From Eledone cirrhosa (lineage: Eukaryota): a stretch of 64,000 nt of DNA. The stretch spans positions 120,838,001 through 120,902,000 of the forward strand of contig OZ024740.1 of assembly GCA_964016885.1 (NCBI GenBank), in the 5' to 3' direction. Both the position numbers and the translations under genes were made by a program. Below the pieces are notes generated by a model, which ran no database searches, was not told the DNA's origin, and worked only from the letters and a program-made list of their open reading frames with translations. Of this stretch, positions 3,294 through 52,689 are shown in pieces; position 1 is the first letter of the stretch; every line of letters starts with the position of its first letter.

Positions 3294-5722
3294 AGCCCAG
3301 TATTACAATGAAGCGTTAGCTAGAGCAGGATATAGTGATAAAATTATGTACATAGATAATAATAGACAAACTAACCAAAATAACAACAATTTTAATTACG
3401 GCAACAACTTTAACAACTATAATAGAAAGCATTACAATTATTCCAAAAGCCAAAAAAGAAATAGAACTAGGAATATAATATGGTTTGCCCCCCCTTTCTC
3501 ACTAAACATTAAAACCCACATCGCTAAACTATTTTTTAATGCTCTTGATAATCGCTTCCCTAGAACACATAGGTATCACTCAATTTTCAATAGACATACT
3601 ATAAAATTAACCTACTCATCCACCAACAATTTAGCACAAAATATTAATAGAATAAATAATAGGAATTTAAAACCTAGCCAAAATACCGATAATAGCATAA
3701 ATAATATCCAAGTTAACAAATGTAACTGTAGAGATAGATCTAAATGTCCGTTAAATAACAATTGCTTAGTTAAAAATATAATATACAACTGTAATGTTAA
3801 AACAGACTTAAATTCTTTTAACTATGTTGGTTCCACCTCGACAGAATTTAAACTTCGCTATAATAACCACAAGAATTCTTTCACAGATCCAAGCAAAAAA
3901 TCCTCAACATCACTATCAGGCCTACTCTGGCAACTTAGGCATGATAACGTTGGATATTCAACGGCTTGGAATATAGTCTCAAGAGGGATTCCTTTTAATT
4001 CATCCTCTGAGACATGTGACCTCTGCGCGGAGGAGATATTCTTTATACTAAAATCTAAAAATTCCCTTAATTTACGGACAAATTTATTCAGTTGCTGCAG
4101 ACATAGATTGAACTCAACTTTTAAATATAAATATAAATTTAAAATGTACTATATTTAATTTGATTTATAATTATTTATGAAACTCGCCGATAAATCTTTC
4201 GATTCCTTTTTATTTTAAACACTCTTCATGAATAATTAAACTACCCTAAAAGCTGATGCTCCAAATATATCGAATAAATTTTACACTAGATAAACTTCTA
4301 TATTAAATATAAGACCATCTGTAGATCAAATGGGTATCCTAAACTTTTGGAATGTTTTCTGCTAGACAGGATTTGGTAAATAATTTTGGTTTTGTTTCCT
4401 TTTGATTCTGATGCTTATAACGAACTTGGCAATATATTGTCAATTAACTTTGAAGGGTTGATCTCTGTGGTTGATTTGCGGGGCATACTATGTTTTATTT
4501 TTATTTAAATATTTTTAATATTTTTTAATATTTTTAATATTTTTATTTTTAATATTTTTTTTGATTTTTTTTGTTTTTTATTTACTTTTTGTTTCTGATA
4601 TTTTTATTGATATATTGATATCTGTTCTCTATTTATGCTTGAACGATAATCATGTAGAGTAAAGACATGAATAGTATTGTTAAAATTAATGTAGACTCTA
4701 TATATATTTGTGTGTATGTACACATATATGTATACTTAAATTTTTATAGCACAATGAGAATGTTTTCGTGTGAAATAGGAATTTGCAGAGCTGATCACGT
4801 AAATTCACATGGATGTATATAGTATAAAATCTGGGATAACCTTCTATTTAACTCAACTCTAATATAAACCTAGGATTTTTAGACTAGACATATGATCATT
4901 ATTTTTCACACATTATTGATACGTGTCTCATTCATGAATACTGATATTTACACTATAATGCCTGGTTTATACGAATTGATATTTTTTACATTGATGAAAC
5001 ATAGTGTTTTAAATCTGCCTCGTTTTTGTGTGGATATTTTTCTTTTCTCTCTATGTAACGGCTGTTTTTTCTCTTAACCACATATATCTCTCTCTACATT
5101 AATACTAGAGCTAAATAAATAAATAAATAAATAAATAAATATATCATTGATACGTCATTCAACTGGTGCCCAACTACCTAGTTTCTTTCTCTCTATCTCT
5201 ATCTATATCTATCTCTCTATATTTTCTCTCTCTCTCTCTCTCTCTCCTCTCTTCTCTCTCTCTCTCTCTCTATCTATCTCCCTCTGTGTTTTTTCCTCTC
5301 TCTATATATCTCTCTCTGTTTCTTTACATGAATTTCTTCTCTCTATCTATTTCTCTATATCTATCTCTCTCTATTTAATTGCATGCATTTCTTCTTTTTC
5401 TTCGTTTTTCTTTCTTTCTTTTTATAACTGTCCCTAATATTTTTTCACTACCAAATCAACTTTTCTAATAGAAGTCGAAGTTGAAAGGTATGTCGAATCT
5501 ATCTATTTATAAGACTGTTTATATTGTATTTTGTCTGAAGAAGGTATAACATATTTTTAATATGATATCCCTGAAATATATATAATGAAATAAATATGGT
5601 TTTATAAATATAGTTTCCATTTATTTAATATCGTAAATATACTCCAAATACTTGTTGAGTGCTTTTATATCAGTTATAAATATTTACTCGTTGTTAACCG
5701 AACAATTTAAATAAAACTTTGC
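3294..5722 (+). mobile_element. 5'-truncated Naiad-type PLE (RT thumb + GIY-YIG EN in ORF 3181-4158) with long 3' UTR ending at (TA)n
   Basis: YYNEALARAGY, RNIIWFAPPFS, IFNRHTIKLTYS, CNCRDRSKCPLNNNC, IIY..YVG..FKLRYNNH, CDLCAEE, CCRH. Confidence 0.92.
5521..5597 (+). ncRNA. Minimal type-I hammerhead ribozyme
   Basis: CTGAAGA 5535-5541. Helix II aggtataacatatt/aatatgatatccct. GAAA 5573-5576, then T-ATAT-A-TA. Helix I tattttgt/atgaaata. Confidence 0.8.
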
Positions 5723-6117
5723 ATATATATATATATATATATATGTACTGAACAATAGCAGGCATAAACACTACAGGGAGCCTCACCCCAGAAAGAATTC
5801 TATAGACTTCTGACTGAGGAATGCTCTCAGAACTGAACAATGGGAAGTTTGACACATTTTTTTATATTTTGTTCCTTCAACCCCTTGTCCCTTCTACCAT
5901 TTTATCAATTTTTAAGCTAACTCCAACAATGACAACACTAATAACTGACCAATGAGAGGAGAAGGGGATCTGTGACACGAAAATTCGTTTGTTTGAATTC
6001 ATATGACTCCAGTTCCCCAGTGAATTAACAACCCAGCAAGGAACTGGGCATATCAGAGTATTGACAATATCATACACCTAAACAACATATGTACTTGTCT
6101 ATACCATACTAATTCAA

Positions 6118-50900: not shown

Positions 50901-52689
50901 CCATCAAACCGAGACAAAAATGCACACATTGTAGGGCTAGCGTAGGGGGTTGAACACCCAGGCGTGGGTTCTGATCATTATTCTAATTATCAGACAGTAA
51001 GACACAGTGTTTGACACAAGTGTTGCATCTTTGAATTTACCTGTACAGTCCATGTGGTGAGGCGTGCCATTCTAATTTCCCTTTGATCGACCTAAGAATG
51101 TTAAAAGGAACATGCATAATATTACATGAAGTGGCATCGAATCGAAATCATAAGCTCATGATTGCGAAAGCACATTTATAACTACTCGACCAAATATATA
51201 CCGATGCGCACACACACTTATATCACAAGCGCGCGTACACACAAACAAACACAAACATTGCACACACTAATTTACTTTTCTCTTTCTCTCTCTCTCTGTT
51301 TCTGTGTGTGTCTCTCCTCCCCGCTCTCTCTCTCACTATACATACAGATAGTATCAGCAATGAAAAAAATTGATAGAAGCATGGTTTTCTTGGTCCGTTC
51401 TGACGATCGACACATTTCCTTTCCTTTTTCTACCTTCAAGCAATAATTTCATGATTTCATATATGCAAGCGCTAATACTGACTGGTGCAGCGATATAATA
51501 CATACACTGCATAGAGTAGTATTCCCATCACTATATCTATTAGTTATTTGATCGATTAGAAGAGGTAGAAATTAAAGCCACGGGAGCATATGTTCGAAAA
51601 TTGTTACTGATTTACACTATCCATCCTATCATATATAAAATGGTTACGTAATTGTTTAATATAAAATTCGCATGACTTTTCGTGATTAGATAGATATAGC
51701 TATCTATTTCTCTGTCTTTTTCTCTCTATTCTCTTTTCTCTATTCCACGAACCCCGTAAGGCTCCCTTCTCTCTCTCTCTCTCTCTCTCTCTCTCTCTCT
51801 CTCTCACGCTGCTCACACATGTATAGGTGTCTATATATATGTGTGTGTGTGTGAATGAGAGAGAAAGAGAAAGAAAGAAAGAGAGAGATAGAGAGAGATA
51901 GAGATAGATAGAGAGAGAGAGAGAGAGAAAGGAAGAGAAAGGGAGAGATGAGGAGGCAGAGAGATTAAGTTATAGTGTGTGTGTGTGTTCACGATTTTCG
52001 ATTCCGCCGAAGATGACTTTGTTTATTATTCAGGCGTTAATAAAATATGGTCATATACTAGGTCGGTATAACTACTTCTAATCGACTAATGGCTGGCCCA
52101 AAGTAGAGACCCTTATGAAAGTATATCAGTGAATCGGGCGACATATATCTATGTTGTCCAACCATTGCTTGCCCGATGACGAATAATCAAATTAATTATT
52201 ATAATTGTTTCTACTTTTGGCACAAGACCACCACTTATCTCAGTGCACTACTGGAACTTTATTTTATCGACCCCGTAAGGATGAAAGGCAAAGTTAACCT
52301 CGGCGGGATTTGAACTCAGAATGGCAAGGGTCGTAACTCTACGTGTCAAAGCATGGCGTCCGACCCTCTACCGATACTACCAATCCACCCCAGTAATGTA
52401 CTGGGTAATTGCTTGGCCTTGTGCCAAATGTAGAAACAATTATTATAATAAACGGAAATGACGGGTACTGAAAGTGGAGTTAAAGGGGATGAATCAAACT
52501 TTCCCAAAGCGTCAACACTACGCCATAGGTCTGCACTATATATATATATATATATATATATATATATATATATATATAAGTTCAAACAATTGTTCTCGGT
52601 ATCGTGAACTAACTGTTGTGTAACCACTTCTACCTAACTCGTCCCATGGACTGAGTGCTCTGCCACTACGGATATTACCTTCCAGTGTT

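Follow-up and report, generated by a model that had tools for sequence, protein, structure and literature searches.

A duplicated 5' UTR hairpin registered to the two alternative ends of Hydra-clade Penelope-like elements in Eledone cirrhosa: a candidate reverse transcriptase start signal

The window considered here is a stretch of 64,000 nucleotides (nt) of the 3.0-Gb genome of Eledone cirrhosa (contig OZ024740.1, positions 120838001-120902000), and holds fragments of Penelope-like elements (PLEs) of the Hydra clade, retrotransposons in whose 5' untranslated region (UTR) a small hairpin is found twice, 55-99 nt apart. In the available portion of its published description (PMC8557442), the clade is characterised by an RWK-type motif and DKT, a CxCX5C linker, CxxC and CxH in the endonuclease (EN), a hammerhead ribozyme and (TA)n targets, with elements that are generally under 3 kb, form tandem and inverted units, and often bear the so-called tail at one end only. 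The reverse transcriptase (RT) and EN fragments of the window carry the CxCX5C linker, with CxxC and CxH around the EN end, and junction copies run into open reading frames (ORFs) with the RWK-type (R-W-K/R) N-terminal motif and DKT. A single ORF with an RT and, at its C-terminus, a GIY-YIG EN is seen in the intact 784-amino-acid frames of one family, Y; in the window, the Pfam GIY-YIG match at 1656-2246 (E 0.0036) falls below the cut-off, and eight of nine fragments have no Pfam match. The predicted hammerhead is canonical in families A, B, E, F and K, and has a non-canonical core in family Y and in a family represented at 20378; 110 of 130 end fragments adjoin TA. The family Y unit, at 3531 bp and with a long 3' UTR, exceeds the usual size, which is not a strict feature of the clade. 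RT identity among twelve families of this genome is 34-79%, and eleven of the twelve form one clade in an RT tree that contains rows from this genome and from metagenomes only; a likeness to Hydra-1_Obim was seen by eye.

The first-pass annotation of the window had listed seven strings with GAGTGCT at their 3' end, six of them opening with ACTC, all of which are present in the sequence at the positions given, and these letters are the variant of the motif that belongs to the E. cirrhosa genome. All seven lie on the plus strand and represent the first of the two hairpins (copy 1); E-values given for them are from R1, a covariance model built from 35 metagenome copies selected for pairing. The hairpins at 5641-5663 and 37813-37835 sit in two copies of a family A element that are 93.6% identical over 1.8 kb. 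In the first of these (R1 E 0.013), which is 87% identical to a junction reference (L217) whose end lies 8 nt before copy 2, the long end is at 5723/5724, a descriptor finds a predicted type I minimal hammerhead at 5527-5592 (+; core 5535, predicted cleavage before 5585), and upstream, at 3172-4158 (+), is the 3' portion of an ORF of Hydra type that encodes the RT thumb, the CxCX5C linker and a GIY-YIG-type EN and matches the family A ORF in L217. In the second, identified by descriptor, end mapping and R1, the hammerhead core is at 37707 and the long end at 37895. The family A2 hairpin at 16242-16265, in a copy 81% identical to both, lies within the head-to-head pair 16048-16333, in the long arm, the opposite arm being short-ended, and is missed by R1 at E<=3. 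The family E hairpin (98% to L230; R1 E 0.13; hammerhead core 6123; long end 6320) had been drawn at 6254-6270, which is the minimum-energy fold of the fragment; a wider parse at 6228-6270, with a 6-bp inner stem and a long loop, is likelier, being favoured by the parse of the cross-species model and by the short end of the family, 6 nt before 6228, and the sister family K keeps the outer stem only. A family B-like hairpin lies at 39785-39811 (71% to L220; R1 E 0.001; hammerhead core 39673; (TA)n from 39871). Finally, the family D-like hairpin at 44999-45021 (77% to L244; long end 45058) and the family D hairpin at 52637-52659 (95% to L244), both with a 1-nt bulge and both missed by R1, are in copies 81% identical over 63 nt.

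The seven copies, claimed as the property of dissimilar families, thus come from four or five families and not from seven; the amino-acid identity of the RTs among these families is 35-74%, and the proposal of a selectively conserved cis-element shared by divergent families holds. The 3' word GAGTGCT has ten exact matches in the window, of which those at 31214 (+), 34769 (-) and 674 (-) lie in unrelated contexts. The further claim that a hammerhead precedes each copy at a regular spacing fares less well. The descriptor finds one 72, 96 and 72 nt before the 3' word of the copies at 5641, 6254 and 37813, and by eye a core stands at 39673, about 80 nt before the copy at 39785; for 16242 and 44999 the core has one changed base, and the 52637 copy retains the 3' half only, its core replaced by (TA)n at 52537-52578. 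Likewise, six copies lie 60, 50, 60, 60, 59 and 37 nt before a terminal (TA)n, but at 52637 similarity stops 7 nt before copy 2 with no (TA)n directly after, the next run being at 273 nt. Neither spacing is invariant. In family Y the hairpin follows the predicted cleavage site by about 25 nt, and elsewhere by up to about 60 nt; the 37-60 nt before (TA)n are what is left of the tail as far as the start site, which would be set by a second hairpin, not visible to the first-pass annotation. Families whose hammerhead core is non-canonical still have the hairpin, so that it need not belong to the cleaved RNA, as had been supposed.

What the hairpins do mark is the two ends of the elements. In the sample, copies that carry a hammerhead break off in one of two places, a little past the predicted cleavage site or about 85-100 nt beyond that. 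Family Y was found by protein search, with the motif not considered, and two sites account for the ends of most of its 30 loci. In its intact 3531-bp tandem unit (L171), two hairpins lie between the hammerhead and the start codon. The site of the short end there is a TA step 8 nt before the first of them (copy 1), and that of the long end a TA step 6 nt before the second (copy 2). In the case of family D, an unbiased junction search showed that copy 2 begins 8 nt past the end. Junctions for families A, A2, B and E-K came from a search that required the second hairpin and is biased in that respect; it gave 543 forward and 256 reverse matches, versus 13 and 32 in the controls. An unbiased pattern for family A had 29 matches, none of which was a junction, and the junction of that family is from the biased search. 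When the ends were mapped with 14 references from 11 families on the window and 100 evenly spaced 10-kb stretches (1.064 Mb), copy 1 had 42 of the 110 TA-adjoining ends in the 3-14 nt ahead of it and copy 2 had 58, the other 10 lying elsewhere; the modes are at 6 and 8 nt. The two 12-nt windows therefore hold 100 of the 110 ends, but only 65 of 311 TA steps. As the distance from copy to copy varies (68-99 nt in the families of this genome), the invariant is the offset of an end to the hairpin downstream of it. Two alternative 3' ends with a tail at one of the insertion's ends are what defines a PLE tail, and the motif is the start of that tail, whose length of 68-99 nt (55-82 nt in metagenome clusters) lies outside the published 30-40 bp.

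The 3' word precedes TA runs more often than by chance. Genome-wide, it is found 35-62 nt before (TA)5 in 37,666 matches versus 3,139 for the word written backwards, figures that we take to be those of the orientation in which each site counts once, with a control word that contains a CpG. When 600 kb of evenly spaced sequence was sampled, the 3' word had 70 matches, of which 17 stood 25-75 nt before a TA run, where 6.8% were expected, and six words of the same composition outranked it.

In the motif, an outer stem of 4 bp is followed by an inner stem of 1-6 bp with a variable loop; 2 nt (1 nt in family D) bulge out on the 3' side, and three conserved 3' bases are unpaired. Its structure was judged from 74 metagenome hairpins, in the choice of which the inner pairs had no part. 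The first base of the bulge is U in 72 of the 74; if a 2-nt bulge is assumed, inner position 1 pairs in 72, as compared with 1-9 for other bulge sizes. Inner positions 1-4 pair in 72, 58, 48 and 32 hairpins (permutation means 57.8, 30.4, 30.6 and 24.3). In copy 1 alone, positions 1 and 2 each pair in 33 of 35 (permutation means 25.3 and 18.6), and four Watson-Crick types occur at position 2. At the first outer pair, the metagenome set has G-C, and 10 of the 11 families of this genome have A-U in their copy 1. R1 finds copy 2 in most junction loci, though not in family D; an earlier relaxed descriptor had been noisy, with 84 matches per 1 Mb versus 33-48 in shuffled sequence. Rfam gave no match in the window at gathering score, self-cleaving ribozymes included, and in six metagenome loci gave seven matches at E<=5, none of which covers a hairpin. 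The motif was also considered as stem III of a hammerhead, and letters resembling it do occur in stem III of three published Hydra hammerheads, but it sits outside a complete hammerhead and has neither core nor cleavage triplet. A splice site was dropped on account of a poor donor match.

The same duplicated hairpin is found outside this genome, in elements of many marine sources. Among RT relatives in metagenomes (the best 80 of 276, retrieved with an RT alignment, giving 79 loci in 56 clusters at 80% identity), 37 clusters have a visible ORF start, 30 of them with at least 170 nt upstream. In these 30, the 3' word is present twice or more in 22, once in 7 and not at all in 1; both outer stems could be parsed in 18 of the 22. 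By chance, two such words occurred in 40 of 6000 shuffles and in 1 of 256 ORF windows. Mappable ends lie within 12 nt before a hairpin in 18 of 22 cases (12 of 13 clusters), and a TA step stands 5-10 nt upstream of 66 of 72 hairpins, versus 35 of 70 further up. These elements have 41-48% RT identity to the query and 42-78% to one another, and because of this divergence one recent transfer of the contigs is excluded. By eye, the hairpin is also present in four of the six published Hydra consensi in File S7 of PMC8557442, as far as that file was available, twice in Hydra-1_Ajap and Hydra-1_Crog and once, after the hammerhead, in Hydra-2_Ajap and Hydra-2_Amil; Hydra-1_Obim has a doubtful hairpin, and the Hydra-1_Amil consensus stops before the site. 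The bearers come from coral, sea cucumber and sea louse, and carry a compensated letter variant of the motif. The exact 3' word occurs ten times in the accessible supplement of Craig et al., and not in its Hydra file, where line breaks may hide matches.

Head-to-head pairs of elements bear on how the two ends are made. In an unbiased set of 42 such pairs, 34 had both ends classified, and 33 of these join a long to a short end, the other being long with long; at 16 loci picked for family Y, all 12 classified pairs are mixed and 6 are unclassified. The arm reaching further 5' in the unbiased set is the short-end arm in 11 pairs and the long-end arm in 4, with 20 near-equal or unresolved; at young loci, the counts are 4, 7 and 1. 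At two loci (L136 and L139), the arms share no sequence. Many family Y pairs, in turn, are near-symmetric and turn 59-69 nt 5' of copy 1, at the strong hammerhead-like hairpin. The one-sided tail is itself published; for the near-strict long-and-short rule and its tie to two hairpins, no published description was found.

The same offset before both hairpins suggests the same act at both, and the simplest such act is docking of the RT followed by priming on the upstream UA. The hairpin is thus probably an RNA signal bound by the element's own RT, so that copying starts 6-8 nt upstream, a view drawn from sequence comparison; of the roles proposed in the first-pass annotation, RT recognition is the best reading of the evidence, and a promoter fits poorly. 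In this scheme, the EN would nick (TA)n at the target, the nicked 3' end would pair with the UA step 5' of a hairpin, and the hairpin-bound RT would copy toward the 5' end of the RNA, leaving that hairpin uncopied. A start at copy 2 would carry copy 1 into the genome and produce the long end, with the tail, and a start at copy 1 would produce the short end. In the available text of a study of the Anolis Poseidon element PAc, the RT in vitro starts internally at two sites that coincide with the borders of the tail, and RNA 3' of the starts is required (PMC11167929). The finding of one end of each kind per pair, along with the non-overlapping arms in two cases, suggests that both hairpins serve one event. 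It is tentatively proposed, at somewhat less than even odds, that one insertion uses both, one per nicked target strand, in a programmed form of twin priming, perhaps by an RT dimer; joining of the two cDNAs would then give the inverted arrangement. Put most broadly, and with the same slightly less than even confidence, Hydra retroelements in at least three animal phyla may share a duplicated docking hairpin at which one RT subunit per hairpin primes each nicked (TA)n strand, at a fixed distance reminiscent of telomerase.

Several observations weigh against the RT-docking reading and the end mapping on which it draws. Most references from this genome were chosen for having copy 2 and form a biased set, only Y and D being free of that choice, and family Y supplies 42 of the 110 TA-adjoining ends. 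Family D shows, in copy 2, an 85-nt insert and a first pair that is broken in two of the three loci viewed. The inner stem of copy 2 is weak, with position 2 paired in 25 of 39 and position 3 not significant; the pairing permutations ignore relatedness among sequences, three parses needed manual correction, and the assignment of three single copies was changed. The outer stem gives no covariation, because three of its four pairs were fixed by the search, and the change from G-C to A-U at the first pair amounts to one or two events on the tree. Under minimum-energy folding, 6 of 12 fragments take the exact structure and 8 form the outer stem, so that a protein would have to stabilise the hairpin; R1 at E<=3 recovers four of the seven window copies first listed and misses three. 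Near-equal or unresolved arms in 20 of 35 pairs also fit fold-back synthesis, and later central deletions could alter arm lengths. The RT-start reading for Hydra moreover draws, by analogy, on in-vitro starts of Poseidon, which is of another clade and whose RNA, as drawn in Fig. S1B of PMC11167929 and judged by eye in the accessible material, is without the Hydra hairpin. Lastly, a family at 40230-40546, labelled Neptune-type from published descriptions, differs in its RT and has the linker CX4CxxC; it too stops at two TA-targeted sites, 60 nt from each other, and has no such hairpin. On this one control family, the motif looks Hydra-specific, and two ends can evidently be set without it.

The main rival is a DNA-level signal for the endonuclease, in which the GIY-YIG EN or a resolving step would recognise the folded single-stranded sense DNA or the donor repeat. 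A cut at the TA 6-8 nt upstream would trim a longer intermediate, and copy 1 would be a stop or cut signal for a fold-back arm. We regard this as unlikely, although the EN does cut TA-rich DNA and the ends do sit at TA. In the accessible parts of their papers, Craig et al. ascribe the tail to EN-mediated resolution (PMC8557442), and the Drosophila virilis EN is said to need the tail for recognition (as cited in PMC11167929). The near-symmetric family Y pairs, turning at a strong hairpin, are also as expected of such a process. Nevertheless, the one-sided 2-nt bulge and the covarying stems imply a folded single strand and not a duplex, and wobble pairs weakly favour the sense strand, by 16 to 8. 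Fold-back from a long end, in addition, cannot give the further-5' short-end arms of 11 of the 15 resolved pairs unless deletions followed, and the Poseidon starts coincide with tail borders in vitro.

Rather improbable is a second alternative, that the RNA is cut at the UA upstream of the hairpin, which would act as a tiny ribozyme or nuclease site, with the RT starting at the new 3' end as R2 does. The fixed distance to the UA step would suit it, and PLE repeats already carry ribozymes, but there is no Rfam match. To our knowledge, the conserved core is too small for any known ribozyme. Copies with a long end require an uncut copy 1 and an uncut hammerhead, and the Poseidon RT uses unprocessed RNA in vitro, according to the available text of PMC11167929. 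Marginally less probable again is an expression element (an internal promoter, a site for cap-independent translation or an autoregulatory operator) with which the ends merely coincide. The hairpins are in the 5' UTR, copy 2 is 13-50 nt before the start codon, and PLE promoters have been located in the pseudo-long terminal repeat (pLTR), as reported in the accessible text of PMC8557442; this explanation leaves unaccounted for the 100 of 110 ends fixed upstream of both copies and the one end of each kind per pair, the start-codon distance varies, and an ORF-less tandem unit keeps the hairpin in one case. Shared ancestry without selection, the copies being those of a few recent families, is hardly credible: the window copies do come from four or five families, and 11 of 12 families of this genome form one clade, but the duplicated hairpin recurs in the RT-divergent metagenome clusters and in the coral, sea cucumber and sea louse consensi, amid otherwise unlike UTRs and with compensatory changes.

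Further copies of the hairpin are present in the window, three of them added by R1. The best R1 match (E 2e-4), absent from the first-pass annotation, is at 31948-31976 (+), 63 nt before (TA)n; it has the pan-Hydra letter variant and belongs to a high-copy family for which no ORF link was found. A second, at 15886-15906 (-; E 0.002), lies with a hammerhead core at 15717 inside an ORF-less tandem unit of about 570 bp, the last copy of which stops just before the hairpin. This array (15348-16071, minus), with the hairpin at the unit junction, resembles a retrozyme-like dependant. The third, at 38013-38039 (+; E 0.6), is a damaged copy 1 that belongs to the young family Y and lies in the long one of the two arms of a 150-bp head-to-head pair (37939-38089). 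Other R1 matches are at 44547 and 17355. A variant with changed outer-stem pairs and a weak fold, missed by R1, is at 20378-20400 (+), and its family is linked to a Hydra-type EN end at one locus (L273). A damaged copy 1 of family H is at 54270-54296 (-), with a long end near 54214 and a partner short end near 57164; the family H inverted pair of 560 bp (54298-54849 and 56603-57164) takes up about 2.9 kb in all, its arms separated by low-complexity sequence. A family D copy at 16352-17205 (-) comprises the EN-coding end and a hammerhead core at 16417, and has its short end 6 nt before the expected start of copy 1. In the family D 5' UTR at three other loci (L240, L244, L246), the 85-nt insert resembles an internal duplication, and the end offset is still 8 nt.

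Family Y is represented in the window by a frameshifted RT-EN ORF at 41874-43624 (+). Elsewhere, it forms a head-to-tail array at G000:C1:437198608-437213178 (L171, L172), with a period of 3531 bp and four intact 784-amino-acid frames; dozens more intact frames, of 97-100% identity, are present genome-wide, and the family has therefore probably been active recently. Its hammerhead-like fold has a non-canonical core and a long stem II (L171:3180-3270; window 40712-40851, minus). A protein search with its N-terminus returned only family Y, and no relative was found in viral contigs. At L222 and L240, the ends of one Hydra family adjoin truncated pieces of another at a TA junction, the elements nesting in each other's (TA)n. 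At L011:7629 (minus), L014:2257 and L063:3683 (minus), there is a short family that carries a hammerhead and has a long hairpin at its terminus, without a clear instance of the motif. The Neptune-type PLE (40230-40546; L364-L389) is of high copy number; its two ends share their first five to seven bases and then run into predicted stems that differ, perhaps a start signal of its own. Finally, a GC-rich region at 34056-35700 has RT-like frames of a non-PLE retroelement, a 270-bp part of which recurs at 22932-23200.

How PLEs choose their internal starts and come to land tailed and inverted is stated to be open in the available text of both PMC11167929 and PMC8557442. The present analysis offers a 25-nt candidate signal and a geometric rule, a start at the TA 6-8 nt upstream, and family Y, near-intact and high-copy with its 784-amino-acid frames, is a candidate substrate for studying start choice. 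If the docking reading is correct, a shifted hairpin would shift the start of copying. Twin priming, if true, would provide one mechanism for tails, inverted ends and mobilised ORF-less hammerhead repeats, and the hairpin is in any case an annotation marker for Hydra ends and non-autonomous dependants. As the RTs of PLEs are the sister group of telomerase RTs (per the accessible text of PMC8557442), a conserved RNA that positions the RT would bear on the evolution of template definition.

Compared with the Hydra clade as published (PMC8557442, in its available parts), the elements described here share coding motifs, hammerhead, (TA)n targets, tandem and inverted units and a tail at one end, but the published tail is 30-40 bp and ascribed to the EN, whereas that found here measures 55-99 nt, its borders being marked by a structured motif that recurs. 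The words 'hairpin' and 'stem-loop' are absent from the main text of that paper and from those portions of PMC4209133 and bioRxiv 10.64898/2026.07.22.740005 that were available. Poseidon PAc resembles the Hydra elements in that its two internal starts match two genomic ends and RNA 3' of the starts is required, with hammerhead cleavage dispensable and a dimer predicted (PMC11167929). It differs, besides its clade and the structure of its drawn RNA, in that its binding motif was narrowed down only as far as the first 172 nt of the ORF, and the accessible text defines no motif that is conserved or duplicated (PMC11167929). The Hydra clade and the PLE tail were therefore already known, and the duplicated hairpin and the end geometry were found undescribed, as had been suggested for the motif at the outset; no description was present in Rfam or in the literature on the motif within reach, although subscription papers, Repbase reports and some supplements beyond it could hold one. 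Small RNA structures that are bound by an RT and set the start of synthesis are familiar from the 3' stem-loops of R2 and LINE elements, hepadnaviral epsilon and the boundary and stem elements of telomerase RNA, and L1 twin priming yields head-to-head inversions. The likeness of the Hydra hairpin to these structures is one of function as generally understood, with no sequence relation shown. It would differ from them in lying 3' of an internal start, in being left uncopied from its own start, and in being duplicated, so that both starts would be programmed.

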